Notes under the pieces: generated by a model
The model's database searches: none
What the model saw: the letters and a program-made list of their open reading frames with translations, nothing else
What the model was told of the DNA's origin: nothing
Part shown: positions 12,698 to 61,909 of the stretch, in pieces
Position numbering within the stretch: position 1 is the first letter of the stretch
Layout of the letters: each line of letters begins with the position of its first letter
DNA from: Lentimicrobiaceae bacterium
Lineage (GTDB): Bacteria > Bacteroidota > Bacteroidia > Bacteroidales > JAGONC01
Length of the DNA stretch: 64,000 bases
Assembly: GCA_017993235.1 (NCBI GenBank)
Contig: JAGONC010000014.1
Location: 7,149 to 71,148, forward strand
Direction: 5' to 3'
Position numbers and translations under genes: made by a program

Positions 12698-12726
12698 TTC
12701 ACTGCCTCATCCAAAAACCAATCACC

Positions 12727-21545: not shown

Positions 21546-21767
21546 AACAATATGGCATCCCTTCGGGATTCTGTTGGATTGGATGATCATTTTGGACTAA
21601 CAATATGCCATCCCTTCGGGATTCTGTTGGATTGGATGATCATTTTGGCTAACAATATGCCATCCCTTCGGGATTCCATTTGGTTGCATTTCCTCATTAG
21701 ATCATGCTGGTTGGGAGTTCCGAAGGAACGACATATGGTTCCAACAGGATGCCATCCCTGGGATGAT
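21546..21767. repeat. REP-like palindromic element cluster
   Basis: Three tandem units (period 53 then 52 nt) start at 21546, 21599 and 21651 (AACAATATGSCATCCCTTCGGGATTC...). Each carries the hairpin ATCCC-ttc-GGGAT. Two further small hairpins follow: GTTCC-gaa-GGAAC at 21717-21729 and CATCCC-t-GGGATG near 21751. Confidence 0.7.
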
Positions 21768-21956
21768 AAATTTCAGTGGCAGGAAGGTTATGGTGCATTT
21801 TCTTATGCAAAATCACAAAAACAAAACGTGATCAACTATATTAAAAATCAGGAAGAGCACCATCGTAAGCGATCATTCCGGGATGAGTATATTGAACTAC
21901 TTGAGCGATATGAGATTCCTTACGACGAGAGATATATCTTTGATTTTAAAGAATGA
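21768..21956 (+). pseudogene. 3' remnant of a REP-associated tyrosine transposase (RAYT, IS200/IS605 Y1-like)
   Basis: KFQWQEGYGAFSYAKSQKQNVINYIKNQEEHHRKRSFRDEYIELLERYEIPYDERYIFDFKE matches only the last ~60 aa of Bacteroidota RAYT-like proteins. The catalytic N-terminal ~100 aa (HUH, Tyr) are absent and replaced by REP-like repeats. Confidence 0.7.
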
Positions 21957-21983
21957 ATCTGACCTGAGAAAGAATCCACCTGA

Positions 21984-23774
21984 TTATTCAATCCTTCTCC
22001 ACCATAAACGGAATAATACAAATCCTGATATCATAGAGATGCAGGTCAGAATCACGGCCATCAGGTAATTGGAATAGATCCAGTTTCCGGTGGCGAACAA
22101 CAGACTGTAAATAAAAATGCATCCCAGGACCATGGCCAGGATTCCTGCCGGGACATTCCATCTTGCGGGATCCGCCGGTTCGATGGAATCATTCTCCGCT
22201 GATGCATCCCGTACCACTTTCGCCCAACCTGGCCCTCCCGGCCTGACAAGCCGGTAAAAACTCCGTAAAGTATGACCATCGACCTGAGGTGTAAGATAGG
22301 TCACTCCAAGCCAGGCCAGTGTGGTGATAACAACACCCAGTACCAATTGAACAGAGGAGCTCAGTTGAGGTAATCCGGTCAGGGGATGCAGAAACTGAAA
22401 ATAAAGGGCTACGACAAACGAAACGATCATGGCCGTGATCTCACTGTACGCATTGATCCTCCACCAGAACCATCGCAGGATAAAGATGAGCCCGGTCCCC
22501 GCACCGATCTGTAACACAATATTGAATGCCTGCAGTGCATTGCTCAGTAATAGGGCAAACAGGAGAGCAGCAGCCGTCAGAACAAGCGTCGAAATCCTGC
22601 CAAGGAGCACCAGTTTTTTTTCACTTGCATCAGGATTGATGAAGCGCTGGTAGAAATCATGAACAATATAGGAAGAACCCCAGTTCAAATGGGTGGAAAT
22701 GGTCGACATATAGGCGGCAATGAGGGAGGCGACCACCAGTCCCAGGAAGCCGGCCGGCAGAAAACTAAGCATGGCAGGGTAGGCAAAATCATGTTTGACA
22801 AACTGGGGATCGGCCTTAGGAAAATAGGCCTGCAATGAGGCAAGATCCGGAAAAACGATAAGCGAGGCAAGGGCCACCAGGATCCAGGGCCATGGGCGTA
22901 GGGCATAATGCATCACATTGAAAAGTAGCGTAGCCCTGACAGCACCCGACTCAGACCTCGCAGCCAGCATCCGCTGGGCAATGTATCCCCCACCGCCCGG
23001 CTCAGCACCGGGATACCAGACGCTCCACCATTGCACGGCAAGGGGCAGGATCAGCAGGGTGATCAGGGCATCCCTGTCCGTGAAGTCAGGTAGCAAACTC
23101 AACCTGGGCACCACGGCAGGATGATGGATCATTTCGTTCAACCCGCCAACCTGCGGTAGATGGATGACATAGATCGCTGCGCCGATTGCACCGATCATGG
23201 CAACGCCAAACTGAAAGAAATCGGTTAGCAAAACACCCCGGAATCCCCCGAGCGTGCTGTAGACGGCCGTCAGGGACATGATGATGACCAGTGTTTTTAC
23301 CGGCGACCAGTTGAGCATCACCGCCCCGATCTTGATCATGGCCAGCGACACCAGTGCCATGATCAGTATATTGAACAAAACACCCAGATACAGTGCCCTG
23401 AAACCCCTGACAAAAGCAGCCATCTTTCCACTGTACCGGATCTCATAAAACTCCAGATCCGTAAGAATCCTGGATCGCCGCCACAGCTTTGCATAGATGA
23501 AAACGGTCAGCATCCCTGTCAGCAGGAACGCCCACCAGGCCCAGTTACCGGCCACACCTCTCTGCCGCACCAGATCGGTGACCAGATTAGGTGTGTCGCA
23601 TGAAAAGGTAGTGGCTACCATGGAAACACCCAGAAGCCACCAGGGCATGCTCCTTCCGCTCAGAAAAAACTCCGCATAGCTTTTTCCCGAGGTTCTGGAA
23701 GCAAACAATCCAATGATCAGTGAAAGAATAAAAAAACCAATAATGATGATCCAGTCGGACAACGATAAAATCAT
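21984..23774 (-). CDS. Sodium:solute symporter (SSS family) transporter
   Basis: About 13 predicted TM segments and an SSF-like pattern. The track start (TTG 23792) overlaps the upstream stop. An ATG at 23774 (MILSLSDWIIIIGFF...) is more plausible. Confidence 0.85.
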   Translation of the reverse strand: MILSLSDWIIIIGFFILSLIIGLFASRTSGKSYAEFFLSGRSMPWWLLGVSMVATTFSCDTPNLVTDLVRQRGVAGNWAWWAFLLTGMLTVFIYAKLWRRSRILTDLEFYEIRYSGKMAAFVRGFRALYLGVLFNILIMALVSLAMIKIGAVMLNWSPVKTLVIIMSLTAVYSTLGGFRGVLLTDFFQFGVAMIGAIGAAIYVIHLPQVGGLNEMIHHPAVVPRLSLLPDFTDRDALITLLILPLAVQWWSVWYPGAEPGGGGYIAQRMLAARSESGAVRATLLFNVMHYALRPWPWILVALASLIVFPDLASLQAYFPKADPQFVKHDFAYPAMLSFLPAGFLGLVVASLIAAYMSTISTHLNWGSSYIVHDFYQRFINPDASEKKLVLLGRISTLVLTAAALLFALLLSNALQAFNIVLQIGAGTGLIFILRWFWWRINAYSEITAMIVSFVVALYFQFLHPLTGLPQLSSSVQLVLGVVITTLAWLGVTYLTPQVDGHTLRSFYRLVRPGGPGWAKVVRDASAENDSIEPADPARWNVPAGILAMVLGCIFIYSLLFATGNWIYSNYLMAVILTCISMISGFVLFRLWWRRIE

Positions 23775-23784
23775 ACCAGGGAAC

Positions 23785-26472
23785 TTATTCAATAATCACT
23801 TCGTCACTGAAGATCCAGGCAGGTTTTCCGCTGCCCTTATGCCAGGGAGGGCACAAGCCCGGACTTCTAGCCTTTATCCTGATAAATTGCGCCTGGATCC
23901 CATCAAAGGAGGCCGTGTAATCCATGACCAGCCTGGAACCCTGACTGGCCGCACTCTTATTGCTGATCGTGGTAGACTTGACCTCATCCGAACCGTCGAG
24001 CGACAGGCTGAAGGTGACCTCAAGCGGAAGGAAGATCCAGACTCCCTGATCCTGAAGAAATCCTGCTGTGACTTTATTCACTGGCATGATGCTGCCCAGG
24101 TTGATGGTCACTTCCATATCTTTCTTCAGAAATCCCTGCCAGCTGCCGTCCTTGTAATGAGTGGTCCCACGTTTGCCATCCAGCAGCGCCAGTTCACCTC
24201 CCCCGGTGTAGAGACTGGAATAACTGTTTGTATACTCCAGGGACATGCCGGTGCCTTTATGCACCAGCATTTCCGATTCGGTGTAACCATCCTGCTTTCC
24301 GTCAATGAAAACAGCTGCTTTCAATATGCAGGATTCCCCGATCATGAATGGCCCTGTATAAATGCCTGACAGGGTATCGGGAACCGTTTCGTCCAGGGTA
24401 TACCTGATCTCATCAACCTCACGGGGAGACGATAGTTCCACCTGCAGTCCCTTCTCACCCGGGATCGTTCTGGATTGAATGATGATGTCAGGAATCACCT
24501 CCAACAGGTCAAACCAGGCGGTTCCTCTCGAAATCAACTCAATAGCAGGATTCAGATGGATCAGTTTCCATTCACTGACTGCCGGGACAACAAAGGAATA
24601 GTGCCTCCATTCACCATCCAGATCGAACACCTTTGAAGCATCACCCAGTGACATCCTGAATTGCATCAGGTTGGCCGGCTGTTTCTTCTTAAAAGACAGC
24701 TTCCGGAAGAAACTTTTCTTTTCTTCGATACGGATCTCCTTACCCGCTTTGGCCCAAACAGAACAGGAATATGTCTGGCCAGTCCGTAACTGCACCGGGT
24801 AGAACGAAAGCTGGACACCCTGGTCGTTCTCAGGGGTCACAAGCTTCAGGGATCTGTAACCCTGGTAGGAGGTTCGCGAATCGGTAAAATAGGTGGCTCC
24901 GCGGTCACCTTCCCGTCCTGCATAACATGCCGAGGGAATACCGGGTTCCTGATTTTCTTCAAAGCCGGGATCGACCGTCAGGTTGAACGGATGGATGTTA
25001 TCCGCAGGATCCGACAGGGCGTCCGTGGTTATTTTATAGACCCTTGTTCCATAGCCATCAATGATATCCTTAAGAACACCCTTGTTCAGAACGATTTTTC
25101 TGTTCTCATACAGGACATCCGCTTCGCCTGAAGCAGGGATTTGATCCAGTTTGATCTCATAGGTCAGGGGAGCTGGATTCGTATTGACCGCAATGACCAG
25201 GGTTTCTCCTTCCTGTACCCAGGCACCGGCTTGAATGTCTTTAGTCGAAGCGATCAGGCTGAGGTAGTTATTTGCATAATAAAAGTAAGGAGTCAGATCA
25301 GCCACCTCCAGAGCGATGGAGCCGCATTCCGCCCACATGGCCTGTGACTTGGGGAACCTGTTGAGCCCATGCCGGATAAAATACTGGATACCTGAAGCAT
25401 GGTTGACAATGGCAAGGTAGGTCATCACCCTGATTTCACGCTGTGTCGGTTCTCTTTTCCACCATTCGGCTCCTCCGAAGGCCTGGGGAACGATCCAGAC
25501 AGGTTTTTCCGGATAAAAAGCGTCATACAGCATACCGGCCCATTCCGCAACTTCGGTGACAGGGGAGTTGGGGACAGGATACGGATCGGCCATCACAATG
25601 TCACAAACATCCTTGTACTCCATAGCTTTGGATGGAGTCATCAACACAATGGTTATCGGATGGTAGGGGTCAAGCTCCCTGATCGTCCGGTATGTATCTG
25701 CAAGGTTTTCAGGGGGTACGTCCTGTCCGTCGGGTTCGTCTGCAATATACCAGGCCAGCAGTGCAGGATGATCCCTGAAAGCCAGGACTTCATCCGTGAG
25801 CATCTGCTTCCTTTCCTCCATAGAAGTTTCGTTATCCCTGGCATCCTTCACCCCTCCTCCTCCGGCGACAGATAAAAGCTGGTAATGAACTTTCATTCCC
25901 AGCACCGCACACCGGTCCATGTAAGCTTTCCGCTCACCAATGGTCTTTTCTCCTATGCGCTGATAGGGGGAGATCATATTGAATCCCTTTACGACCTCCT
26001 CTTCGGGAAGAGTGGCCGAAACCGGGGTCCGGCAATAAAATCCGAAAGGGAAGAAAGGCATTCCATCCACCTGAAGTCCACCGCTGAAATGATCGATCTT
26101 TACCTCATTCGACTTCCAGGGTAATCTTCGGATCTCAACAGTAGCTGAATCCAACGGTTTTTCCTTTAAATTAAAAATACACAGAAGGGTATCCTCACCC
26201 TCACGGAAGTTCTGTAACCTGAAAGGCACCAGTTCCGCCGTTATATCTTTCTGAACCAAATATCCTTTGACCAGTGATCTTCCGTGATGCATAAGGTCGA
26301 TCGATACATTCTCAGAGCGAAACACATCCGGTACCACGACCAGGACATGCCCTGATGTCTCCATGGTATAGTAGCTGAGCCGGCTGATGGCTTTAAACCC
26401 ATCATTTCCGGCATTAAGCTGCATGGAAAGGATGAAAAGTGAAATGATTGAAAATGGGAAATGAGGTTTCAT
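23785..26472 (-). CDS. Secreted glycoside hydrolase (TIM-barrel-like catalytic region, family not assignable by eye) with Chb/Hex C-terminal and F5/8-type-C-like modules
   Basis: ATG at 26472 gives the signal peptide MKPHFPFSIISLFILSMQLNAG. The central FRDHPALLAWYIADEPDG motif is typical of clan GH-A-like enzymes. The C-terminal ~250 aa are paralogous to the GH20 C-terminus. Confidence 0.7.
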   Translation of the reverse strand: MKPHFPFSIISLFILSMQLNAGNDGFKAISRLSYYTMETSGHVLVVVPDVFRSENVSIDLMHHGRSLVKGYLVQKDITAELVPFRLQNFREGEDTLLCIFNLKEKPLDSATVEIRRLPWKSNEVKIDHFSGGLQVDGMPFFPFGFYCRTPVSATLPEEEVVKGFNMISPYQRIGEKTIGERKAYMDRCAVLGMKVHYQLLSVAGGGGVKDARDNETSMEERKQMLTDEVLAFRDHPALLAWYIADEPDGQDVPPENLADTYRTIRELDPYHPITIVLMTPSKAMEYKDVCDIVMADPYPVPNSPVTEVAEWAGMLYDAFYPEKPVWIVPQAFGGAEWWKREPTQREIRVMTYLAIVNHASGIQYFIRHGLNRFPKSQAMWAECGSIALEVADLTPYFYYANNYLSLIASTKDIQAGAWVQEGETLVIAVNTNPAPLTYEIKLDQIPASGEADVLYENRKIVLNKGVLKDIIDGYGTRVYKITTDALSDPADNIHPFNLTVDPGFEENQEPGIPSACYAGREGDRGATYFTDSRTSYQGYRSLKLVTPENDQGVQLSFYPVQLRTGQTYSCSVWAKAGKEIRIEEKKSFFRKLSFKKKQPANLMQFRMSLGDASKVFDLDGEWRHYSFVVPAVSEWKLIHLNPAIELISRGTAWFDLLEVIPDIIIQSRTIPGEKGLQVELSSPREVDEIRYTLDETVPDTLSGIYTGPFMIGESCILKAAVFIDGKQDGYTESEMLVHKGTGMSLEYTNSYSSLYTGGGELALLDGKRGTTHYKDGSWQGFLKKDMEVTINLGSIMPVNKVTAGFLQDQGVWIFLPLEVTFSLSLDGSDEVKSTTISNKSAASQGSRLVMDYTASFDGIQAQFIRIKARSPGLCPPWHKGSGKPAWIFSDEVIIE

Positions 26473-41792: not shown

Positions 41793-43121
41793 TTATTTCT
41801 CCTCTCTCCTCTCAATCTCCACGTCCATCCATTTCTCCAGAAGTGTAAAAGCTTTTTCCTGCAGATCCGCAGGAAGGGTTCCGATCCTTGATGAATGCGC
41901 TCCCTGGGGTTTGTAGATCACCACGACCTCGTTTTTCCCCGAAGGTTGCACAGCAGGCGCTGCCCATGGGTCATACTGTCCATAGATGAAAAGCATGCGT
42001 TGGGCATCATGACGTATAAAATGATCCACTTTTTCCATGGGGACAGGGTCATATCTTACCTCAGTGCCTTCCGGTGCCGTAAAAGAGAACGTAATATCCT
42101 CCGTCGAACTGACCAATCCCCTGAACGGATCCACATCGTAGCCATAGAAACCAATCTCGGTCATTGCCTGATAATAGAACGGAAGGTATTGATTTATCCC
42201 TTCATCTGAAAGCCAGTCGATGCCTGCCACGACATCCAGGTGTTTCACCATCTCATCAGGGGATTTGGCAGGAACCGGGATGGAGTCGCACGACCACCGT
42301 CCCCACTGCCAGAAAGCAAAGGCATACTCCATGATGGTCATCTCATACGACTTTTCCATACCCACCTTTTGGTAGGTAAATTTTTTTTCTTCGGCCTTTT
42401 TTTGATAGACAGGATAATATATGGCCTTATTTTTCAGCATTTCCACCTGATACTGGTAAATCCGGTCGCGGCACTCCTGGCTGCCCACCTTTTGCATAAA
42501 GTCGTAGATACGGGCATCCTGGATGGAGAAGTTCAGCGGGCATACATAGCCTACCGAAGCGTCCACGTCATCGGGATAAAAGTACCGGTGATACATGGTC
42601 GTCTGCCCTCCCTTGCTGATACCGGTGTTCAGCCATCGGGCGGAGTAGAGTCCCTTGAACAGCTCCACCACGCGGTGGTGATCGGCTGCAGCCTGCTCAA
42701 TGTCAAGGTACTGCCAGTCAAGCGGATCAGGTACCGATTCTCCGAAATAACGGTGTTCTACCACGATCTGGTTGGCATCCAGGTACCCGGTCAGCTCATT
42801 GATCGACCGGGGGTAAATGGAATACCCGGCCCCGTATCCTTCGGTTACAAAAACCATCGGTCGCGAGAAATCCCTGTGGAAAAGGAATACACGCTGTGAG
42901 AATGTGGCTCCGTCGGGATGGTGATGATCCACCGGCTGGGTAATCTTCAGGACATAGGCTTTGCTGAAGTGCGGATGATGGGCGATGGTGTCGAAACTGA
43001 CATCAGGCCGGTTCTTTAAAAATGACTCGAGCAGGGCGATCTGGGGATCGGTGGATTGGGAATAGGCTCCAGTCCACGATAACATAACACAGATCAATAG
43101 AAATGATTTCTTCATAAGCAC
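41793..43121 (-). CDS. Secreted alpha/beta-hydrolase serine peptidase, S28/S37-like
   Basis: Signal peptide. QPVDHHHPDGATFSQRVF is the typical N-terminal motif of S28/S37 peptidases. Nucleophile elbow GISKGG. Confidence 0.65.
   Translation of the reverse strand: MLMKKSFLLICVMLSWTGAYSQSTDPQIALLESFLKNRPDVSFDTIAHHPHFSKAYVLKITQPVDHHHPDGATFSQRVFLFHRDFSRPMVFVTEGYGAGYSIYPRSINELTGYLDANQIVVEHRYFGESVPDPLDWQYLDIEQAAADHHRVVELFKGLYSARWLNTGISKGGQTTMYHRYFYPDDVDASVGYVCPLNFSIQDARIYDFMQKVGSQECRDRIYQYQVEMLKNKAIYYPVYQKKAEEKKFTYQKVGMEKSYEMTIMEYAFAFWQWGRWSCDSIPVPAKSPDEMVKHLDVVAGIDWLSDEGINQYLPFYYQAMTEIGFYGYDVDPFRGLVSSTEDITFSFTAPEGTEVRYDPVPMEKVDHFIRHDAQRMLFIYGQYDPWAAPAVQPSGKNEVVVIYKPQGAHSSRIGTLPADLQEKAFTLLEKWMDVEIERREEK
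41796..41816. repeat. CT-rich heptamer array (TTTCTCC TCTCTCC TCTCAAT) at the 3' end of the peptidase ORF
   Basis: Encodes the tail ...EIERREEK* on the minus strand. Same word family as 54449-54476. Confidence 0.6.
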
Positions 43122-43153: not shown

Positions 43154-43192
43154 GATTTTTGATTTCTGAATTCAAGTCAGAAATCAAAAATC
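43154..43192 (-). terminator. Perfect 16-bp inverted repeat, candidate terminator of the GRE operon
   Basis: GATTTTTGATTTCTGA-attcaag-TCAGAAATCAAAAATC, 24 nt downstream of the stop at 43216. Confidence 0.55.
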
Positions 43193-43215
43193 CTTGTTCC
43201 TCTGTTCGTCAATCT

Positions 43216-44256
43216 TCACCTGAATATAAATCCTCTCCCCAGCGGATCCTCCGGATCGAACCAGAACGAATGCCGGCCCGTAAAATGTGCTGTTCCGCTC
43301 ACCTCGGGAACTACGGCCCGGTGAGGCCCGAAAGTGGTCACTTCTGTGATGCTGACATCCATGGTGGTCCCCAGGATACTTTCAATCGTAATCACCTCGC
43401 CAGTCCTCAATCCATCTTTTTCGAAGTGCAATGCTGCCCTGGCACTTACTCCGGAACCCGTCGCCGAGCGATCCACCTCCCCGTCGGCAAAGATACAGAC
43501 ATTCCGGCTGTAATGGGATGCATCCTCTGGAGTGCCCGTGATGATCGTACCGTACAAAAAGCTCAGATCTTCCTCGAAAGGATGTATAATCGGGTAATGT
43601 TCCATGACAGCCAGTTTAATGCGCCGGCCAAAATCGATCAGCCGGTTGAACTCACCGGGGACCATTTTCACTCCAAGGTCTGCAGCCCCAACGAATGCAT
43701 AGAATGCGCCTCCAAATGCCACGTCAAACCGTACTTTCCCTATCCCACTCACATCCACCGTCTCATCCCTCAACAAAAGAAACGACGGAACATTCCGGAA
43801 CGAGGTCTTTTTCACGATCCCATCTTCCCTGTATCCTTTCGAAAAGATCTTGCCCGGAGGAGCATTGATGATGAGCTCCGGTTCATTTCCTTCTTTCTCG
43901 ATCATGCCTGTGTCGAGCACCAGCTTGGTCAGTGCGATGATGGCATGTCCGCACATGGTACTGTAACCCTCATTGTGGATAAAAAAAACACCAAAATCAG
44001 CATCTTCGGTAGTGGGCTCCGTCAGGATCGCCCCGTACATATCAGCGTGGCCGCGGGGTTCCCACATCAATCCTGTACGGAGATGATCAAAATGATCGCG
44101 GAAGTACCGGCGCTTCTCCAGGATCGATTTTCCCTTGATATCCGGCAGTCCGCCGGTTATGACCCGCAGCGGCTCACCGCCGGTGTGCATGTCGATGGTC
44201 GTGATCACCGGCCAGGAAGGCGGCGGTGCATAGGCAGGGATTAGTTTCATATTCAT
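43216..44256 (-). CDS. Proline racemase-family protein of the Cys/Thr type (trans-3-hydroxy-L-proline dehydratase-like)
   Basis: DMHTGGEPLRVI. The first catalytic position is Cys (STMCGHA). The second catalytic position is Thr (DRSATGSGVSARAA), as in characterised trans-3-hydroxy-L-proline dehydratases, not the DRSPCGTG of racemases and epimerases. Confidence 0.8.
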   Translation of the reverse strand: MNMKLIPAYAPPPSWPVITTIDMHTGGEPLRVITGGLPDIKGKSILEKRRYFRDHFDHLRTGLMWEPRGHADMYGAILTEPTTEDADFGVFFIHNEGYSTMCGHAIIALTKLVLDTGMIEKEGNEPELIINAPPGKIFSKGYREDGIVKKTSFRNVPSFLLLRDETVDVSGIGKVRFDVAFGGAFYAFVGAADLGVKMVPGEFNRLIDFGRRIKLAVMEHYPIIHPFEEDLSFLYGTIITGTPEDASHYSRNVCIFADGEVDRSATGSGVSARAALHFEKDGLRTGEVITIESILGTTMDVSITEVTTFGPHRAVVPEVSGTAHFTGRHSFWFDPEDPLGRGFIFR

Positions 44257-44260
44257 TTAG

Positions 44261-44327
44261 AGATGTAAAGATGTAAAATTACTTCGAATATCATTACATC
44301 GCTCCATCGCTACTTCGCTACATCTTT
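44261..44327. repeat. Octamer arrays in inverted orientation at the EamA / proline-racemase-like junction
   Basis: AGATGTAA x2 (44261-44276) faces ACATCGCT CCATCGCT ACTTCGCT ACATCTTT (44296-44327). TTACATC and TACATCT are complements of the left units. The right array spans the EamA stop codon (44310-44312). Confidence 0.7.
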
Positions 44328-45206
44328 AATCCTAATCTGCGCCAGCACCATTCCTGCCAGCATCAGCGCGCAGCCCAGCAGCGCGCGCGACGACAGCACC
44401 TCATGCAGGATCAGCCATCCGCCGAACGTCGCAAAGACAGCCTCAGAGCTTAAAATGATCGCTGCATGGGCCGGCGGTGCCTTTTTCTGCCCCACGATCT
44501 GCAGGGTATAGGCAATACCCACGGAGAATACCCCGCCATAAAGAAGGGGAACCGTTGCATCCACGATGGCCTGCCATACGATCTTTTCAATAAGGACAGC
44601 GATCACCAGACTGAGTAATGACGTGATGATATATTGCATCAGGGCCAGCTTCAGCGCATCCACACGGGGAGAGACGTGCCCGATGTACAACACGTGAAAC
44701 GCCCATACAAAAGCACATCCCAGAACATAAAGGTCACCCTTCGAGTTGTGAAAGTTGCCGGTGACACTCAGGAAGTACATTCCGGTAGCGGCCAGAAGTG
44801 CACCTATCCATACATAGATGGACGGCCGGTGACGGATGAACAGTCCCAGGATCGGAACAAAGACGACATACAATCCTGTGATGAAGCCTCCATTCCCGGC
44901 GGTGGTATAGATCATGCCCGTCTGCTGAAGTGTTGCTCCTGCAAATACCAGGAGTCCTGCAATGATCCCGCCCCTGACCAGGGTTTTTCGATGATCCTGA
45001 AGAAATTCCGGACGGATATCGATTTCCCTGTTTTTCCGGATGAAGATGAAAGCACCCAGCACCAGCGCTCCCAGCCCGAAACGTATACCATTGAAAAGGA
45101 ATGGACCCATGTACTCCATCCCCACCCGCTGTGCCGTAAAGGCAAAGCCCCAGATCAGGGCTGCCAGCAGCAGCAGGAGTTCGGATTTAACGATCGTCGT
45201 TTTCAT
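44310..45206 (-). CDS. EamA/DMT-family transporter
   Basis: Ten TM segments and two EamA repeats. The ATG at 45206 (MKTTIVKSELLLLLAALIWGFAF) avoids overlap with the GRE gene. Confidence 0.8.
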   Translation of the reverse strand: MKTTIVKSELLLLLAALIWGFAFTAQRVGMEYMGPFLFNGIRFGLGALVLGAFIFIRKNREIDIRPEFLQDHRKTLVRGGIIAGLLVFAGATLQQTGMIYTTAGNGGFITGLYVVFVPILGLFIRHRPSIYVWIGALLAATGMYFLSVTGNFHNSKGDLYVLGCAFVWAFHVLYIGHVSPRVDALKLALMQYIITSLLSLVIAVLIEKIVWQAIVDATVPLLYGGVFSVGIAYTLQIVGQKKAPPAHAAIILSSEAVFATFGGWLILHEVLSSRALLGCALMLAGMVLAQIRIKDVAK

Positions 45207-45246
45207 GGAGATTCTGTGGGGAAGGAACTCAGGTACCTCTCCCGAT

Positions 45247-47610
45247 TTAAAACGCTGTATGCTCTGTCCGGCGGATGATCTCATCCTGCAGATCTTTCCC
45301 CAGGTCGTTGAAGTAATCGCTGTAACCCGCCACCCTCACGATCAGGTCCTGGTACTTCTCGGGATATTTCTGCGCATCCCTCAGGGTGTCGGCATTCACC
45401 ACGTTGAACTGGATATGATGCCCATCCATGCGGAAATAGCTCCGGATCAGCTGTACCAGGCTTTCGATTCCCCGTTCCCCTTCAAAGAGCTGTGGTGTGA
45501 ACTTCTGGTTGAGCAGCGTTCCTCCGGTCTTTAAGTGATCGATCCGGGCAGCGGATTTCAACACGGCCGTGGGTCCTTTTTTATCGGAGCCCTGGAAGGG
45601 AGAGATCCCCTCCGACAGGGGCAGGCCGGCTTTTCGGCCGTCGGGTGTGGCACCAATGACACTGCCAAAATAAACATGGCTGGTGGTGGGCAGCATGTTG
45701 ATCCGGAATTTTCCGCCTCTTGCCGTGGGCCGGTCATTCACAGCCTGGTAGAACATGTTGAATACGCTGACTGCATGCTGATCGGCATAATCATCATCGT
45801 TGCCATACTTGGGAGTGTTATAGACCAAATCGAATCTCAGCTCATCATTTCCTTCAAAGTTCGACCTCAGGGCATCCAGCATTTCAGCCATTGTCAGCTT
45901 TTTTGTATCGAAAACGTTGTACCTGAGGGAAGTCAGGATATCCGTGATACTTCCCAGTCCGACTCCCTGAATGTAACTGGTATTGTAACGGGTTCCCCCA
46001 CGGTTGTAATCCTGTGCATTATCAATGCAGTCATCCACCAGCAGCGAAAGGAAAGGCACCGGAATATAATCTCCGAATAGTTTTTCTATAATGTTGTTGC
46101 CTTTGATTTTGATATCAATGAAATGACGGAGCTGTTTGTTAAAAGCTTCCATGATCTGGTCAAATGACGTAAAAGACGTGACATCTCCTGTCAGCAATCC
46201 GATTTGTTTACCAGTCCGCGGATCGGTGCCGTTGTTCAGGGCGATCTCCAGCACTTTGGTCAGGTTGAAGTACCCGGTCAGCCAGTAGGCTTCGGTACCG
46301 AAGGCGCCGCTCTCCACGCATCCGCTGGCACCGCCGTTACGCGCGTCTTCAATGGATTTGCCCTGACGCATCAGCTCCTGAATGATGGAATCGGTATTGA
46401 AGATGGATGGCTGGCCAAAACCGGTTTTCAGGATCCTGGCTGCTCTCTTCAGCAGGTTATCCGGATTCTGCTTGCTTATCTGCACCATCGAACTGGGCTG
46501 CAACAGGCGCATCTCCTCGATCACGTCAAGGATCAGGTAGCTCATCTCATTGACGGCATCCTTTCCGTCAGCTGTGAGACCGCCCACGTTGATCAGCGCA
46601 AAATCCGTGTAGGTGTTGCTTTCCAGTGCTGTCACCCCTACCTTGGGGGGGGCCGGGTGGTTGTTGAACTTCACCCAGAAGGATTGCAGGATCTCTGTTG
46701 CTCTTTCTTTAGTGAGCGTACCCGCCTCTGTCTCCCTTTTATAGAACGGATACAGGTGCTGGTCGAGCCGTCCCGGATTGAAGGAGTCCCAGGGGTTGGT
46801 CTCGGTGATGACACCCAGGTGCACAAACCAGTAGTATTGAAGGGCTTCATGGAAGGTGCGGGGAGCATGGGCAGGAACACGGCGGCAGATGGTTGCCATA
46901 TCGTTCAGCTCCGCTTTCCGGGCGGGATCCGGTTCACCGTCGGCAAGCTTCTCCAGCTCCAGTGCATGACGTTCGGCATAAAGGATCAGCGCATCAGCGG
47001 CAATCTCCATGGCACGCAGCTCCTCCCGCTTGTCCATAGCCTGCGGATCGTTATAAAAATCAAGCTTTTCCATATTCTGCCGGATCTGTGCCTTCAGATC
47101 CAGAAAACCCATCCTGTAGATTTTCCCTCCCAGCACGGTATGTCCGGGGGCACGCTGTTCCTGGAATTCAGTAAAGACGCCTGCCTGGTAGCTGTCGATC
47201 CAGGCCTGGTCCATTTCACGGAACAGCCGTTCACGATTACTTTTTCCCCTCCAGAACGGGATGATGATGTCTTCGTATGCTTTTCGCGTTTCGTCATCCA
47301 CTTTGAACGACACCTTCGGTCGGCTGTTCAGGATATCCAGGTCCTGCAGGGAGTGCAGACAGACTTCCGGATAGGAAGGAGTTGCCTTGGGAGCAGGTCC
47401 TCTTTCACCGACGATTAGTTCGCCTTCGTTGATACAGATCCTTTTGTGCTCAAGGATGTACTTGAACGTCAGGGCCCTTTTTACAGGTACAGAAACCTGC
47501 TGAGCCAGGTCGCTTTGATAAAAGTCTGTCACCAGGAGCGCACGTTCCGCAGAAATGCGGTTGACGGCTTTAAGACTCTGTTCACGAAGTTTGGTTATGC
47601 GTGGGTTCAT
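45247..47610 (-). CDS. Glycyl radical enzyme of the 1,2-eliminase class, candidate trans-4-hydroxy-L-proline dehydratase (HypD-like)
   Basis: 787 aa. C-terminal glycyl-radical motif RVAGYSDYF. Cys loop GGASGCVESG has a single Cys with Glu at +2 (eliminase type, not the CC of PFL). Adjacent activase. Confidence 0.85.
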   Translation of the reverse strand: MNPRITKLREQSLKAVNRISAERALLVTDFYQSDLAQQVSVPVKRALTFKYILEHKRICINEGELIVGERGPAPKATPSYPEVCLHSLQDLDILNSRPKVSFKVDDETRKAYEDIIIPFWRGKSNRERLFREMDQAWIDSYQAGVFTEFQEQRAPGHTVLGGKIYRMGFLDLKAQIRQNMEKLDFYNDPQAMDKREELRAMEIAADALILYAERHALELEKLADGEPDPARKAELNDMATICRRVPAHAPRTFHEALQYYWFVHLGVITETNPWDSFNPGRLDQHLYPFYKRETEAGTLTKERATEILQSFWVKFNNHPAPPKVGVTALESNTYTDFALINVGGLTADGKDAVNEMSYLILDVIEEMRLLQPSSMVQISKQNPDNLLKRAARILKTGFGQPSIFNTDSIIQELMRQGKSIEDARNGGASGCVESGAFGTEAYWLTGYFNLTKVLEIALNNGTDPRTGKQIGLLTGDVTSFTSFDQIMEAFNKQLRHFIDIKIKGNNIIEKLFGDYIPVPFLSLLVDDCIDNAQDYNRGGTRYNTSYIQGVGLGSITDILTSLRYNVFDTKKLTMAEMLDALRSNFEGNDELRFDLVYNTPKYGNDDDYADQHAVSVFNMFYQAVNDRPTARGGKFRINMLPTTSHVYFGSVIGATPDGRKAGLPLSEGISPFQGSDKKGPTAVLKSAARIDHLKTGGTLLNQKFTPQLFEGERGIESLVQLIRSYFRMDGHHIQFNVVNADTLRDAQKYPEKYQDLIVRVAGYSDYFNDLGKDLQDEIIRRTEHTAF

Positions 47611-47618
47611 GGGGATTT

Positions 47619-47664
47619 GTGGTTATTCGTGGTTATTACCTTTGACTGCTGACTGCTGACTGCT
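47619..47664. repeat. Junction arrays between activase and GRE: decamer x2 and heptamer x3
   Basis: GTGGTTATTC GTGGTTATTA (47619-47638), then GACTGCT x3 (47644-47664). CAACCGC CAACCGT continues into the activase 3' end. Confidence 0.85.
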
Positions 47665-47669
47665 GACCG

Positions 47670-48464
47670 TCAACCGCCAACCGTCACCTTCATCCCGATC
47701 CGCTCAAAGACTTCCTTTAGCTCATTGAGCCTCTCCAGCGATGGTTCCTGCAGTTCTTCCAGTCTGTAATTCATTTTTAATCTTTGATATTTGCTTTTTG
47801 CTATCCGGTGATAGGGTAACAGATCGACTTGCTCCAGTCCATTCAATTCCAGGAAAAGATCCCTTAGGGCCTGGATATTGACTGGGGTATCCGTTATTCC
47901 CGGGATGACAGGGATGCGTATGATGATGTTTTTTTTCTTTGCTGATAGCTCCATCAGGTTTTCCAGCACCCGATCATTGGGTACTCCCGTATACTTAAGA
48001 TGAGATGCTGAGTCAATGAGTTTCAGATCGTACAGAAAAAGATCCACGTCATCCATAACCTGCTCCAGGATTGGGAAGGAGACATGCCCGCAAGTGTCAA
48101 GAGCGGTATGGTATCCTTTCTCTTTTGACATCCTTAGCAGTTCCAGGAGGAATTCCGGCTGCATCAACGGCTCGCCCCCCGAAAAGGTGATCCCTCCGCC
48201 CGACTGATCATAATAAATACCATCCTTTTCGATTTCTTTCATCACCTCCACGGCATCCACCCATCTGCCAGATATCTCTTCGACACGGAATGACCTCCCA
48301 TCCAGCGATCGTTCCTTGATCACCACATCCTCATGTTTTGACTGGCTTTCCGGATTATGGCACCACCAACACCGCAGCGGACATCCCTTGAAAAACACGG
48401 TTGTCCGGATGCCCGGTCCATCGTTGATGGAATAATGTTTTATATCGAAGATGATTCCTTTCAC
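47670..48464 (-). CDS. Glycyl-radical-enzyme activating enzyme (radical SAM), minimal PflA-like form
   Basis: GTG start. DGPGIRTTVFFKGCPLRCWWCHNPES (CX3CX2C) and GGEPLMQ. Only 4 Cys in 264 aa, so there is no ferredoxin-like auxiliary-cluster insert. Confidence 0.9.
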   Translation of the reverse strand: MKGIIFDIKHYSINDGPGIRTTVFFKGCPLRCWWCHNPESQSKHEDVVIKERSLDGRSFRVEEISGRWVDAVEVMKEIEKDGIYYDQSGGGITFSGGEPLMQPEFLLELLRMSKEKGYHTALDTCGHVSFPILEQVMDDVDLFLYDLKLIDSASHLKYTGVPNDRVLENLMELSAKKKNIIIRIPVIPGITDTPVNIQALRDLFLELNGLEQVDLLPYHRIAKSKYQRLKMNYRLEELQEPSLERLNELKEVFERIGMKVTVGG

Positions 48465-48620
48465 GGTGAAAATGTTTCGCGTAAAAAAAATGGAAAAAGG
48501 ATCCCGCAGGGAACGGACCAGCGTTAACCTAGCACATCCAGCAGGCGTAAAGGCCCTTGCCGTTGTTGTGGTAAAGTGTGCTATGATGGCAGTGGAAAGA
48601 CATGACTATAAAGTGGACTG

Positions 48621-48628
48621 CAAAATTA
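48621..48628 (-). promoter_or_regulatory. Candidate -7 promoter box TAATTTTG for the GRE operon
   Basis: The plus strand reads CAAAATTA, 156 nt upstream of the GTG start at 48464. This implies a long leader. Confidence 0.3.
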
Positions 48629-57221: not shown

Positions 57222-57258
57222 AAGATTGATTACCATTATAAATCCAAATTTTTTTATT

Positions 57259-59532
57259 ATGAAAATGATCTGGAAACCTCTATTTATCATTAGCGTTACT
57301 ATATGCATTTGCCTGTATTCTTCTGCACCCGCAACTGCTCAGGAAAAGCAGGAAGATCCTTCGCTCCTGTCCATCGATCGGATTTTCAACTCCATGGACT
57401 TCATGATGGACCGCGTGATGCCTATCCGCTGGATTGAAGGAGGAAATGCCTATACGACCTTCGAAAGGTCGGAAACAGTGAAATTCGGACGGAATGTCAT
57501 TCGCTATGAAAGTTCGACCGGAGAAAAAAGCATACTGGTGGAAGCAGAAAAATTCATTCCACAAGGTGAGGAAAATCCATTATCCTTTGACGACCTGGCC
57601 TGGTCGGAGGATCGCTCAAAACTCCTGTTGTTTACCAATACAAAGCGCGTCTGGCGTTCCAATACCAGGGGTGACTACTGGTTGCTGGACAGGGAAAGCG
57701 GGAGTCTTTCCCAACTGGGTCAGGGGCTTCCGGAATCGTCGCTGATGTTTGCCAAATTCTCTCCTGATGGAACAAAAGTAGCTTATGTCTCCAAAAACAA
57801 TATCTATACAGAAGACCTCTCCAACCACCGTATCACTCAGCTGACCTTCGACGGGACAGAGACAATGATCAATGGAACGTTCGACTGGGTCTATGAAGAG
57901 GAGTTCCACTGCAGGGATGGATTTTCCTGGAGCCCCGACGGAACACGCATTGCCTTCTGGCAGCTGGATGCCTCAGGGATCAGGACATTTTATATGATCA
58001 ACAATACCGATTCACTGTATCCGTTCACTATCCCGGTTCAGTATCCCAAGGTTGGCGAACCGCCTTCCTCATGCCGCATAGGTGTCATTCCTTCAGAGGG
58101 CGGAAAAGTGACCTGGCTGGAAATCCCGGGTGATACGCAGGACCACTACCTGCCCAGGATGATGTGGACACAGGAAACCGGGCAGATCCTTGTCCAGCAG
58201 CTGAACAGAAAACAGAATACCAACCGGTTGTGGCTCTGCAACAGCAGCAACGGAAGGGCCGACAACATCTTTACCGACGAGGATGATGCCTGGCTGGATG
58301 TGGTTGATGACTGGCGCTGGATCGATAAAGGGAAAGCATTCCTGTGGATCAGTGAGCGTGACGGCTGGCGCCATGCATACCGGATTGAGGTCAGGGACGG
58401 AAAATCATCGCTGATCACAAAAGGTGATTATGATGTCATCTCCGTCAAAGGTATCGATCCTGAAGAGGAGTACCTTTACTTCATTGCGTCACCCGAAAAT
58501 GCCACCCAGCGTTATTTGTACCGTACACTGATGGACGGGACGAGAAAACCTGAGCTTCTGTCACCGGAAAACATGTCGGGAACGCACAGCTACAATATGT
58601 CACCCAACACGCATTTCGCTTACCATACTTTTTCCAATGCAAACACGCCCCCTGTCACCTCGATGATATCCCTTCCGAATCATAAAGTTCTTCGAATAAT
58701 AGCTGATAATCAACATTTTAAAGAAGTAATTTCAAAAATTAAAAACCAGCCAAGGGAATTTTTTAAGGTAAAAACATCCGAGGGGGTTGAAATGGACGGA
58801 TGGATGATGAAACCCCCGGATTTTAATCCGAAACGTAAATATCCTGTTCTGTTCAGTGTTTACGGCGAACCCTGGGGCCAGACAGCAACTGATTCCTGGG
58901 ACTATGACCTCCTCTGGAATATGCTTATCGCCCAGAAAGGCTATATCGTAATGACCATGGATAACCGGGGCACTCCCTGTCCAAAGGGGCGCGAATGGCG
59001 AAAATCCATTTACCGGAAAATCGGTGTCATCAATGCCAGGGATCAGGCACTGGCAACGAGGGAAATTACCCGGTGGAAGTTCGTTGATCCGGATCGGATC
59101 GCAGTATGGGGCTGGAGTGGCGGAGGATCCATGACCCTTAACCTGATGTTCCGTTACCCTGAAATATACCAGACTGGCATGGCCGTGGCGCCGGTTACCA
59201 ATGAGCTCCTGTACGACAACATCTACCAGGAGCGCTACATGGGTCTGATACCCGAAAACCTGGCCGACTTCATTGAAGGATCACCCATCACCTACGCGAA
59301 AAACCTGGAAGGGAACCTCCTGATCGTTCATGGCACCGGAGATGATAATGTCCATTATCAAAACACCGAACAGCTCGTCAATGAACTGGTGAAGAACAAT
59401 AAGCAGTTCCAGGTCATGCCCTACCCCAACCGGTCACACGGGATCTATGAAGGGGAGAATACCTCACGGCACCTCTATACCCTGTTGCTGGATTATCTCC
59501 TGGAACATACTGAGCCGGGGGGGAGGAAATAG
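57259..59532 (+). CDS. S9B dipeptidyl-peptidase IV
   Basis: Signal peptide MKMIWKPLFIISVTICI. DPPIV N-terminal propeller (TFDWVYEEEF). Catalytic WGWSGGGSM, GTGDDNVH and NRSHG. Confidence 0.9.
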   Translation: MKMIWKPLFIISVTICICLYSSAPATAQEKQEDPSLLSIDRIFNSMDFMMDRVMPIRWIEGGNAYTTFERSETVKFGRNVIRYESSTGEKSILVEAEKFIPQGEENPLSFDDLAWSEDRSKLLLFTNTKRVWRSNTRGDYWLLDRESGSLSQLGQGLPESSLMFAKFSPDGTKVAYVSKNNIYTEDLSNHRITQLTFDGTETMINGTFDWVYEEEFHCRDGFSWSPDGTRIAFWQLDASGIRTFYMINNTDSLYPFTIPVQYPKVGEPPSSCRIGVIPSEGGKVTWLEIPGDTQDHYLPRMMWTQETGQILVQQLNRKQNTNRLWLCNSSNGRADNIFTDEDDAWLDVVDDWRWIDKGKAFLWISERDGWRHAYRIEVRDGKSSLITKGDYDVISVKGIDPEEEYLYFIASPENATQRYLYRTLMDGTRKPELLSPENMSGTHSYNMSPNTHFAYHTFSNANTPPVTSMISLPNHKVLRIIADNQHFKEVISKIKNQPREFFKVKTSEGVEMDGWMMKPPDFNPKRKYPVLFSVYGEPWGQTATDSWDYDLLWNMLIAQKGYIVMTMDNRGTPCPKGREWRKSIYRKIGVINARDQALATREITRWKFVDPDRIAVWGWSGGGSMTLNLMFRYPEIYQTGMAVAPVTNELLYDNIYQERYMGLIPENLADFIEGSPITYAKNLEGNLLIVHGTGDDNVHYQNTEQLVNELVKNNKQFQVMPYPNRSHGIYEGENTSRHLYTLLLDYLLEHTEPGGRK

Positions 59533-59572
59533 ATATCAGATATCAGATATCAGATATCAGATATCAGATATC
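59531..59572. repeat. Six perfect tandem AGATATC heptamers between convergent genes
   Basis: (AGATATC)x6. It starts 1 nt inside the TAG stop of DPP-IV and supplies the last codons and TGA stop (...TDI*) of the minus-strand gene. Confidence 0.95.
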
Positions 59573-61909
59573 TGTACCGGGCCTGTAGGTTGCAGCTTGC
59601 AGCTTGGATAGATTTCTTGCCTGATTCAGGAATTCCGGCAGGTTCATCTCCCTGAAATAGATCAGTCCGTGAGCTGCACGTATCCTGGGATGGGGATTTT
59701 CGTAAAAGAAGTTCTTCCCAAGCAAAAGCTGAATCTCTTTCAGCTGCTCCACCCAGATCCTCTGTGCCAGTTCAGAAAAAGGTCCGTCATATTCATAACT
59801 GGGAAACGAAGCGTTGACCTGGCTGACGTAACAATCCCGGAAAGCCTCACGGGTCATGGCAAGGGAGTTCAGTGAGACAGGAACAATGACACTGGCTTCG
59901 GCAGGATGAAAACGATACCAGACGTTTCGGTATCCCCAGATCCGAAGGCGGCTGAGATCAGCCTGACCGCTCCATTCCCTGAGTGCTTCCGCCAGGGTCT
60001 GAAGAACCTTATAATGCGTATCAGGACCGCTTCCCTCCGGATCGAGAGCCACGCTGATCACCGTTGGCTGAACGTGGAGGATCAGATCCAGCAGGGGTTT
60101 CACGTCCCTCTCCCTGTCCGGTTGTTCAGTAAAAATATCCCCCGTATAGAATCCCAGTCGCAGATGATGTATGTTTTTCACCTGTACCCCGAAATGAGCC
60201 CAAACCAGTTCCTCTTCAAACTCCCGGATCATCCCTTTCAATACCTGGATTTCCGGAGGATTCTTTTCCCCGTCATAACTTGACTGCAGACAGGAAAGAA
60301 TGGTCCGGATCTGCTGCGACAATGCATTCGTATCCGTTATACCATAGATCCGGACGATGGCCCTGATGACCCGGTGTGCCAGACCGCGGCGTCGTTCAAA
60401 AGGATCCATGGATGCTACATTATCCAGAAAATGATAAACATCCTTATCCCATTTGTAAAGATAGCCCTGAGAAAAAAAATCAGGATACAGCAGCATCTGG
60501 ACCAGCCCTTTTTCAATGAACATCAGCGTATCGGCAAGCACATCGCGGATAATGGAATTGGTGATGGCGGTAAAACCAGAGGTGAGAATGGCAAAATGAA
60601 ATTGATTGGTGGCCGATCGTAGCTGATGAGCAATATGAGGAAGCAGACCCAGCATGATATCGTCATGGTGTGGGCCTGTGTGCAGGAAGGTTTGATCCAG
60701 CTCCTGCTCCACCCCTTTCCATAATTTCCCAGTGATCGCCTGGCTCACCAACTGAACGGTTTGAAGGCCCAGGTCCGGGATCTGACTGCAGGCCGGATCA
60801 TTCTCCAGATCTTCCCGCTGCAGGTGGTGGCCATATTTGTCAATTCTTTTGCACAGATCGATCACAGCCCTTTCGGTTTTTTCCTGGTTCCACGATCCCT
60901 GGGCATAATATCCCCTGACGCTGTCGGATAAACGTGAGGCAGCACCCTGGGTGAGATAGAAGCGGCTGCCTGGAAGCTTTTGAAGTACGGTAGCCGGATA
61001 GACATTGGTGGGTTCGTTCTCCAGTGATGCTTTAATGATCCCTGCTTTGGCCTCCCCTGCTGCAAAAATGATCGCGGTCGCTTCAGGATTGTAGGTTATC
61101 GTTTCCAGACCGATGGTGATCACCATGCGGTACCTCGAGATTTCAATCCCGCCCAGGTCACTGGCAGCCACTGCCTGTGTTTCAAAATTGGTAGCCGTCA
61201 ACCTGGTGGTGGAATGATGATCGGATCCTCTTATATTGAAGGCAATATGCCCATCGGGACCGATCCCTCCCAGAAAAAATCCAATTCCTCCCAGCTCACG
61301 AATCCTTTTCTCATAACGGGTACACCAGTCATCGATCATAAAGATGGAATCGCGCTGAATCTGGTCAGCCCGTGTTGAGCACTCCCTGTACCGCAATGTA
61401 TTGTCAATGATATGACCGGGGAAGACCTGGCTGTAATGCATCCCCGAAACCAGGGGTATCTCGTCAGCATTGATCAGCAAAGCTCTGTTTCGGTCAAGAT
61501 TGAATCTCTCAATGTAAAATTTATTGACATAGTAATAAAAACTGTTGTGCTGGCCTGGAGATATGGGATAAAATTCATCGATCTGAACAAAATGGAGCCT
61601 GCTCAGGTCAGGTTTCCTTGAGACCGTAAGGCCATATTTCTCCCGGATATCCCTTGTTTTAGGGTCATTCCATCGGTTAAGGAAAAACTCGGTCCAGGAG
61701 ATGAAGTATTCCGGGGTTTTGCCGGTTGGAAGGCTGATCACCCCATCGGGATTCATTGAGACCCATTCCAGGAACCGGAGCGCGGTCAGCATACCCAGTG
61801 TAGGGAAACTGTCCACGATAACATAGGGAACAGATGTTGTCGGCTCTGTCTGGCCTGACAGACGGATAAAAGCAGCCTCAACCGGCGAATATCCACAGGT
61901 CTCCATCAC
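59564..61909 (-). CDS. nagB: Glucosamine-6-phosphate deaminase (NagB-like) fused to a LmbE/PIG-L-like deacetylase domain
   Basis: N-terminal half has ISLPTGKTPEYF and GGIGPDGHIAFN (NagB). The C-terminal half has HTGPHHDDIMLG (the PIG-L/LmbE PHxDD motif). 781 aa. Confidence 0.85.
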   Translation of the reverse strand: MMETCGYSPVEAAFIRLSGQTEPTTSVPYVIVDSFPTLGMLTALRFLEWVSMNPDGVISLPTGKTPEYFISWTEFFLNRWNDPKTRDIREKYGLTVSRKPDLSRLHFVQIDEFYPISPGQHNSFYYYVNKFYIERFNLDRNRALLINADEIPLVSGMHYSQVFPGHIIDNTLRYRECSTRADQIQRDSIFMIDDWCTRYEKRIRELGGIGFFLGGIGPDGHIAFNIRGSDHHSTTRLTATNFETQAVAASDLGGIEISRYRMVITIGLETITYNPEATAIIFAAGEAKAGIIKASLENEPTNVYPATVLQKLPGSRFYLTQGAASRLSDSVRGYYAQGSWNQEKTERAVIDLCKRIDKYGHHLQREDLENDPACSQIPDLGLQTVQLVSQAITGKLWKGVEQELDQTFLHTGPHHDDIMLGLLPHIAHQLRSATNQFHFAILTSGFTAITNSIIRDVLADTLMFIEKGLVQMLLYPDFFSQGYLYKWDKDVYHFLDNVASMDPFERRRGLAHRVIRAIVRIYGITDTNALSQQIRTILSCLQSSYDGEKNPPEIQVLKGMIREFEEELVWAHFGVQVKNIHHLRLGFYTGDIFTEQPDRERDVKPLLDLILHVQPTVISVALDPEGSGPDTHYKVLQTLAEALREWSGQADLSRLRIWGYRNVWYRFHPAEASVIVPVSLNSLAMTREAFRDCYVSQVNASFPSYEYDGPFSELAQRIWVEQLKEIQLLLGKNFFYENPHPRIRAAHGLIYFREMNLPEFLNQARNLSKLQAATYRPGTDI

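Follow-up and report, generated by a model that had tools for sequence, protein, structure and literature searches.

Investigating a stretch of 64,000 nucleotides from a Lentimicrobiaceae bacterium (GenBank assembly GCA_017993235.1, contig JAGONC010000014.1, positions 7,149 to 71,148; hereafter the window), we found on its minus strand a gene cluster which probably allows this uncultured member of the Bacteroidota to salvage two hydroxyprolines (Hyp) anaerobically and in parallel, with one dehydratase for 4-Hyp and another for 3-Hyp. The cluster combines a putative HypD, which is a glycyl radical enzyme (GRE), and its radical-SAM activase with an EamA-type carrier, a predicted trans-3-hydroxy-L-proline (T3LHyp) dehydratase of the proline racemase family and an S37 peptidase, and it is preceded by a conserved small open reading frame (ORF). 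Both enzymes are ordinary members of known families, and what is modestly novel about the operon is that they are paired and that the reductases are missing; the small ORF upstream is the least expected feature of the locus. An initial annotation, made from the letters of the window alone, had placed four ORFs on the minus strand in the order activase, GRE, EamA transporter and racemase-family protein; coordinates and strand match and the Pfam domains agree. Along the minus strand, the locus reads as follows:

48621-48628, minus strand: Bacteroidota-type -7 promoter box TAATTTTG, 17 nt 5' of the small-ORF ATG (putative promoter)
48529-48603, minus strand: 24-codon small ORF MSFHCHHSTLYHNNGKGLYACWMC, first cistron of the operon, candidate leader peptide
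48465-48528, minus strand: 64-nt C-rich, G-poor spacer from small ORF to activase, with a weak hairpin and T run at 48503-48517
47670-48464, minus strand: radical-SAM glycyl-radical activase, 264 amino acids (Pfam Radical_SAM and Fer4_12)
45247-47610, minus strand: GRE (HypD), 787 amino acids (Pfam PFL-like and Gly_radical)
44310-45284, minus strand: EamA/DMT-family transporter, 324 amino acids (Pfam EamA, twice)
43216-44256, minus strand: proline-racemase-family Cys/Thr protein, 346 amino acids (Pfam Pro_racemase, PF05544, 337 bits)
43154-43192, no strand assigned: palindrome of two perfect 16-bp arms around a 7-nt loop, in the gap from the dehydratase gene to the S37 peptidase gene (-22.2 kcal/mol)
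41793-43121, minus strand: secreted S37/S28-family serine peptidase (Pfam Peptidase_S37, 254 bits; signal-peptide-like N-terminus)

The dehydratase, EamA and HypD genes share one strand with intergenic gaps of 53 nt and 40 nt, and would be co-transcribed. The overlap of the EamA ORF with hypD is probably due to an over-long start, the conserved part beginning at Met27 (~45206).

Judged by profiles, structure matches and active-site residues, the 787-aa GRE is HypD. It reaches 1275.3 bits with the NCBIfam HypD equivalog NF043068 (cut-off 1100), the next NCBIfam GRE family being TIGR01774 with 656 bits, and every other GRE model stays far under its own cut-off. The best PDB match is the HypD of Clostridioides difficile (6VXC/6VXE, 1037 bits), while any other GRE structure scores 557 bits at most (glycerol dehydratase 557, CutC ~460-480); among the other Hyp-acting GREs, HpyG (8ID1), HpzG (8IOF) and HplG (7VUA) score 467, 458 and 401 bits. 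The protein is 55.5% identical to C. difficile HypD, and in the alignment it keeps 15 of 15 active-site residues, taken from the list of substrate-contact and proton-relay residues in the HypD structure paper (PMC7077986): in C. difficile numbering, Phe152, Arg156, His160, Trp277, Asp278, Lys326, Ser334, Asp339, Phe340, Cys434, Val435, Glu436, Tyr450, Thr645 and Gly765. His160, Asp278, Ser334, Asp339, Phe340, Tyr450 and Thr645 correspond to window positions 157, 275, 331, 336, 337, 447 and 642. The motifs named in the initial annotation are all present: the glycyl-radical loop (RVxG) as RVAGYS in IVRVAGYSDYF with Gly762, the Cys loop (CxE) as GCVE in SGCVESG with Cys431 and Glu433, and, in the racemase-family protein, STMCGH with Cys102 and DRSATGSG with Thr266. 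The suggestion that the GRE fits HypD was thus borne out, since it groups with HypD and not with CutC, diol dehydratases, HplG, HpyG or HpzG, and its predicted activity is the conversion of trans-4-hydroxy-L-proline to pyrroline-5-carboxylate (P5C).

The adjoining activase scores 295 bits with TIGR02494 (glycyl-radical activase, cut-off 174) and contains the radical-SAM CX3CX2C motif at Cys28, Cys32 and Cys35, its only other Cys being Cys125. It remains below the HypD-activase equivalog NF043069 (322 bits vs cut-off 425) because profile positions ~45-96, a ferredoxin-type insert, are missing, and the CX2CX2CX3C motif of this two-cluster insert is absent from the window activase. The short form is the usual one, as it was found in 64 of the 72 HypD-linked activases of related, mostly Bacteroidota, loci. 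The long form with the insert occurs in Aminicenantes-type loci.

For the racemase-family protein, residues and relatives point to the T3LHyp dehydratase type, with a predicted conversion of trans-3-hydroxy-L-proline to pyrroline-2-carboxylate (Pyr2C). Its best solved relative (6R76/6R77, 438 bits) is the T3LHyp dehydratase of Thermococcus litoralis, TlLhpH (PMC9309405), an enzyme characterised biochemically with a Km of 0.29 mM (PMC4141209), followed by human L3HYPDH (7QPO, 306 bits), and true proline racemases score lower. The alignment with TlLhpH runs ungapped over 341 residues at 56% identity, and places Cys102 and Thr266 on the catalytic Cys104 and Thr268. Thr266 also aligns with Thr in human 7QPO, but with Cys in the proline racemase 7PB3. 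Of the ligand contacts (PMC9309405), Met103, Tyr188 and Thr270 of TlLhpH become Met101, Tyr186 and Ser268 in the window, Ser being the human state (Ser275). Thr occupies the second catalytic position in all 80 of the closest homologues obtained from a metagenome scan (61-97% identity; DRS[APS]TG[ST]G), so that the earlier statement of a Thr, and not a Cys, at this site holds on proper alignment; a Cys/Thr pair is generally taken to distinguish the dehydratases in this family (PMC4141209, PMC4113996). In 23 of these 80, an OCD/mu-crystallin gene (PF02423) lies directly upstream on the same strand, a pair which by its sequences is the canonical lhpI-lhpH combination of Pyr2C reductase and dehydratase. 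HypD-linked and OCD-linked dehydratases are interleaved by identity, and an OCD gene accompanies the copies closest to the window dehydratase once its own species group is set aside (L084-L086, 71-72%); the window enzyme therefore belongs to the same orthologous group as the copies of the classical 3-Hyp pathway. A 361-aa ORF on the plus strand (43159-44244) is a shadow of this gene and not a gene itself.

Two other assignments of substrates have to be weighed here. According to the first, the Cys/Thr enzyme would act on something other than T3LHyp, for example another 3-substituted proline, and its product would take another route, which would explain the missing reductase. The protein indeed falls below the NCBIfam equivalog cut-offs, and no OCD or MLD2 reductase was found in the window or in L081-L083, L019, L021, L025 and L006; yet the 56% identity to a characterised T3LHyp dehydratase with retained Met, Tyr and Ser/Thr contacts (PMC9309405), the membership in one orthologous group with OCD-linked copies, and a locus in which HypD, OCD and dehydratase stand together (L089) make this highly unlikely. 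The second, already offered in the initial annotation, is that the GRE uses another (hydroxy)proline isomer or imino acid supplied by the Cys/Thr enzyme. Hyp-acting GREs of altered specificity do exist (HplG, HpyG and HpzG, listed in a 2026 review, PMC13450708), and some members of the racemase superfamily are promiscuous (PMC4113996). Nevertheless, the GRE keeps all HypD residues and passes the equivalog threshold, the three enzymes of altered specificity score less than half as well as HypD, racemisation and epimerisation are closed to the Cys/Thr enzyme for want of a second acid/base Cys, the Pyr2C that it would form offers no hydroxyl or other leaving group for an elimination, and of the 61 HypD loci with sufficient flanking sequence 57 are without a racemase-family gene. 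We find such a supply of an isomer barely conceivable, and the alternative of the initial annotation was given up in favour of its first reading, the parallel funnelling of 3-Hyp and 4-Hyp, for which the identities of HypD and of the Cys/Thr dehydratase as well as their recurrent linkage speak.

This linkage was followed in the 80 best HypD-seeded genome loci (L001-L080; HypD 65-73% identical; mostly metagenome-assembled genomes of Bacteroidales and other Bacteroidota) and around the dehydratase homologues. Besides the window, HypD and the Cys/Thr dehydratase are neighbours in nine loci:

L081 and L082 (85-97% relatives): activase, HypD, EamA, dehydratase, S37, the order of the window
L083 (85-97% relative): HypD, EamA, dehydratase, S37; the contig begins inside hypD, so that the activase is not visible
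L019: M24B, activase, HypD, EamA, dehydratase, S37; a tandem row of six genes, 0-20 nt apart
L021: activase, HypD, EamA, dehydratase
L006: activase, HypD, DPP-IV, M24B, dehydratase, S37
L025 (cultured Prolixibacter denitrificans DSM 27267, 6766-14858): amino-acid permease, activase, HypD, dehydratase, S37
L121: activase, HypD, dehydratase, C69, SSF
L089 (1709-7336): activase, HypD, OCD/mu-crystallin, dehydratase in a row

The expectation that the gene linkage is conserved in relatives was therefore confirmed, as a minority arrangement: a dehydratase gene stands 3' of HypD in four of the 61 HypD loci having more than 2.2 kb downstream, and activase and HypD stand 5' of the dehydratase in five of the 32 dehydratase loci having more than 3.5 kb upstream. 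As far as gene content tells, L089 is the most informative locus, carrying the full 3-Hyp pair (Pyr2C reductase and dehydratase) fused to the hypD unit. S37 follows the dehydratase directly in 11 loci (L006, L019, L025, L081-L083, L090, L091, L098, L099, L112), by which the peptidase is, from its gene order, a syntenic member of the cluster. EamA orthologues (45-55% identity) flank HypD in eight of the 80 HypD-seeded loci, and an amino-acid permease heads the L025 operon in place of EamA. The other neighbours of HypD in these loci are mainly proline-specific peptidases (M24B Xaa-Pro peptidase in 16, S37 in six, M64 in five, C69 in five and DPP-IV in four), and a proC cluster, as known from Clostridia (PMC6219649), was not seen beside HypD in these loci of environmental Bacteroidota and neighbouring phyla. 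Overall, two modules that also occur separately appear to have been fused in the cluster, one comprising the small ORF, activase, HypD and an optional EamA, the other an optional OCD reductase, the dehydratase and an optional S37 peptidase.

Such a composition raises the question whether the two halves, small ORF-activase-HypD-EamA and dehydratase-S37, are just independent neighbouring units, separately transcribed and regulated and without any coupling of pathways. Dehydratase-S37 pairs without HypD (L090, L091, L098, L099, L112), HypD-EamA pairs without a dehydratase (L022, L048, L058, L059) and the lack of a dehydratase in most HypD loci would be in accordance with this. On the other hand, the same-strand arrangement recurs in lineages in which HypD is only 66-73% identical to that of the window, its orders differ among the recurrences (EamA present or absent, OCD added, DPP-IV and M24B interposed), the six genes of L019 abut within 0-20 nt, and both units would act on imino acids of collagen. 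We therefore judge mere neighbourhood to be unlikely, and parallel salvage by one cluster to be the better description.

The end of the operon requires a correction. A perfect 16-bp hairpin behind the dehydratase gene had been taken as a terminator, and the palindrome is real (-22.2 kcal/mol); its role as terminator did not stand, as no U tract follows on the coding strand and the element decays in relatives. On the coding (minus) strand it is followed by AACACTCC instead of a U run, a terminator scan rated it terminator-like only on the plus strand, in the close relatives L081 and L083 it has decayed, and the flanking dehydratase and S37 genes nearly abut elsewhere, being separated by only 6 to ~25 nt in L019, L098, L091 and L090. 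We have thus rejected the hairpin as operon terminator, and with it the operon boundary, because the conserved cluster continues past it with the S37 peptidase. The palindrome may serve in the processing or stabilisation of RNA, or may bind a protein.

That the operon holds neither a P5C reductase nor a Pyr2C reductase was correctly stated at the outset, and the absence extends to the whole 64-kb window: no P5C reductase, OCD/mu-crystallin or Ldh_2 gene was detected by Pfam on the ORF set, nor by tblastn with an OCD neighbour. The nearby DPP-IV, S28/S37, C69 and M14 peptidases of the initial annotation were all located within the window, the S37 gene at the end of the cluster and the others elsewhere:

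15156-16766: C69 peptidase
16787-19432: M14 peptidase
57226-59532: DPP-IV peptidase

In the pathway we propose, these four would release Hyp peptides or imino acids from collagen-type or other Hyp-rich proteins, and the EamA carrier would move a substrate or product across the membrane. The radical-SAM activase would install the radical on Gly762 of HypD, which then would convert trans-4-hydroxy-L-proline by radical chemistry to (S)-pyrroline-5-carboxylate, and the Cys102/Thr266 enzyme would convert trans-3-hydroxy-L-proline by an acid/base syn-elimination to Pyr2C. Reductases from other parts of the genome, if it encodes them, would finally turn both imines into L-proline: ProC for P5C, and an OCD- or MLD2-type enzyme for Pyr2C. 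In collagen, 3-Hyp occurs in the sequence Gly-3Hyp-4Hyp; both isomers would therefore be released together, and the co-location of the two dehydratases is sensible.

Several observations weigh against the salvage of both isomers by one cluster. Given that reductases are absent from the 64-kb window, the conversion of the imines to proline is an assumption. Only ~7% of the HypD loci and ~16% of the dehydratase loci show the linkage, both halves occur separately, and any co-regulation of the two is thus hypothetical. Within this very genome, a strong hairpin parts the dehydratase gene from the S37 gene. Carriers of the EamA family more commonly export than import, which bears on the direction of transport presumed here. 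Finally, the dehydratase scores below both NCBIfam T3LHyp-dehydratase cut-offs (NF045511, 358 vs 540 bits; NF047722, 189 vs 550 bits). These two are still its top-scoring NCBIfam families, and both model narrower clades; the shortfall weakens automatic naming and not the functional inference.

Upstream of the activase, the alignment of the 268-nt region of the window with L081 and L082 revealed one block that is far better conserved than its flanks and recurs in distant HypD loci. By its clear coding signature, this block is a protein-coding small ORF. It comprises 23-30 codons and was found in 37 of 77 activase-upstream regions and additionally in L019, giving 38 loci, among them many of L001-L068 as well as L081, L082, L089 and L121. 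In L019, it lies at ~620-700 and precedes the M24B gene which opens that operon; its association is thus with the start of the operon and not with the activase as such. The encoded motif is LYHNxGKGL[YF]xCW[MI] or a variant (RLGRRLYHCLMFY), with Gly15, Leu18 and Cys21 invariant and the distance from Met1 to the Gly nearly fixed. A search of all six frames of 1.92 Mb with the strict motif G[KRVM][GRAC]L[YF].C[WL][MI] returned 34 hits, all 34 of them at most 400 nt upstream of an activase and on the same strand. Entropy is highest at the third codon position (0.89, 0.67 and 1.40 for positions 1, 2 and 3), the invariant Gly is encoded by four codons, and the invariant Leu by five from both Leu codon families. 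A TAnnTTTG box precedes the ATG by 13-22 nt in 18 of the 23 box-bearing loci, in 10 of them by exactly 17 nt. The small ORF has no match in Pfam, NCBIfam or Rfam, and it was not found in the L025 operon of P. denitrificans. A cultured carrier is Saccharicrinis sp. FJH54 (L053), in which the variant MIYLNLHIIQNNASGKGLFECRMYYNL stands before the activase, upstream of 9198.

Between the small ORF and the next gene lies a spacer of 45-193 nt. In 34 loci it contains 24.6% C and 12.8% G, with C exceeding G in 33 of the 34, vs 16.8% C and 15.8% G in 109 further intergenic regions 5' of genes in these loci, where C exceeds G in 58 of the 109. A riboswitch in the 268-nt leader was considered and dismissed, as Rfam at E<=1 gave nothing relevant and the conserved "RNA motif" is coding, with synonymous codon variation; the leader fold is no more stable than that of shuffled sequences (z = 0.11). 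An intrinsic terminator after the small ORF was likewise discarded as a general feature, a simple one being present in only 7 of 34 loci, the window among them.

With these properties, the small ORF may encode a regulatory leader peptide, perhaps one that works like TnaC or SpeFL, where stalling of the ribosome keeps transcription from ending early, be it at a Rho-dependent or an intrinsic terminator; its product may alternatively be a micropeptide acting in trans. A more specific proposal, doubtful at present, is that the nascent peptide senses a metabolite: Hyp or a related imino acid would cause the ribosome to pause and to mask the C-rich spacer, Rho-dependent or intrinsic termination would be prevented, and activase, HypD and the downstream dehydratase would be switched on. 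If true, this would be the first leader-peptide control of a GRE operon and a new sensor class in Bacteroidota, placed on an operon salvaging both hydroxyprolines of collagen.

Further genes of the window were noted. A CutC-family gene (PF03932; 37553-38311, minus strand) lies 5 kb downstream, and its counterpart in L021 (14635-15390) stands directly 3' of the dehydratase gene; as a conserved partner it was discarded, since elsewhere it is present only in the close relatives L081-L083 and is thus probably a matter of synteny. In L121 (6461-11004), the dehydratase gene is immediately succeeded by genes for a C69 peptidase, an SSF symporter and a nucleotidyltransferase, types which in the window are found 20-28 kb away (C69 at 15156-16766; APH-type kinase, nucleotidyltransferase at 20550-21449 and SSF within 19492-23792), as if an ancestral gene order had later been broken up. 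The kinase and nucleotidyltransferase of the window resemble a sugar-recycling pair and not Hyp metabolism. Three large ORFs have no Pfam match at E<=1e-5: 6618-10928 (plus strand, 1436 amino acids), situated after a SusC-like TonB-dependent receptor and before a PorP/SprF-like gene, 13138-15039 (minus strand, 633 amino acids) and 59564-61909 (minus strand, 781 amino acids). The 458-aa ORF on the plus strand at 20580-21956 is a shadow opposite a real gene and not a gene.

The initial annotation knew of no description of this combination, which holds in part. In a search that left out most subscription journals, no paper was found that pairs HypD or a glycyl radical with a trans-3-Hyp dehydratase; "putative PFL" genes, however, had already been noted in 2014 as frequent flanks of LhpI/LhpH clusters in thermophilic archaea and bacteria, and were read as pyruvate-forming (Watanabe et al. 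2014, PMC4141209). That reading preceded the discovery of HypD by three years, and the genes in question are probably HypD; the cluster described here would thus reinterpret them. Neither did we find, most subscription journals again lying outside the search, a paper linking a leader peptide with a Hyp dehydratase or containing the motifs of the small ORF.

HypD is among the most abundant GREs in anaerobic communities, and its pathway context outside Clostridia is largely unknown (PMC6219649). The loci compiled here place the HypD of environmental Bacteroidota among proline-specific peptidases, with a recurrent minority adjoining an oxygen-independent trans-3-Hyp dehydratase, a pairing that would offer a simple route for using both hydroxyprolines of collagen without oxygen. 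The missing reductases pose the question which enzyme reduces Pyr2C in these organisms, and the small ORF, if regulatory, would be a way to study the switching of hypD. Cultured carriers are at hand for both, P. denitrificans DSM 27267 for the pairing of the enzymes and Saccharicrinis sp. FJH54 for the small ORF.

Known systems resemble single parts of the cluster. Metabolite-sensing leader peptides are TnaC (24 amino acids) of the tryptophanase operon and SpeFL of the ornithine decarboxylase operon. The small ORF shares with them the extreme shortness of a conserved ORF (23-30 codons here) at the head of a catabolic operon, and a spacer ahead of the first enzyme gene, which in its richness in C and poverty in G recalls a Rho loading site. 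It differs in having no sequence similarity to either and in belonging to another phylum, its distance from motif to stop varies between one and six residues, and stalling is only a candidate property here.

In C. difficile, hypD, its activase and proC form the cluster for the anaerobic conversion of trans-4-Hyp to proline (Levin 2017; Huang 2018, PMC6219649; Backman 2020, PMC7077986). The window has the same GRE (55.5%, with an identical active site), an adjoining radical-SAM activase and the same predicted first reaction from Hyp to P5C; it is without an adjoining P5C reductase and without a link to the Stickland proline reductase, its activase lacks the ferredoxin-type insert, and it adds a T3LHyp dehydratase, an EamA carrier, an S37 peptidase and the conserved small ORF upstream. 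The lhpH-lhpI pathway for trans-3-Hyp, known from Azospirillum brasilense (PMC3958920), T. litoralis (PMC4141209) and, as L3HYPDH, from humans (PMC9309405), shares with the window a Cys/Thr dehydratase of the racemase family in which the catalytic residues and the ligand contacts agree; the closest homologues of the window enzyme stand beside an OCD-type Pyr2C reductase. In the window, this reductase partner is replaced by activase, HypD and EamA, and the setting is that of anaerobic Bacteroidota.

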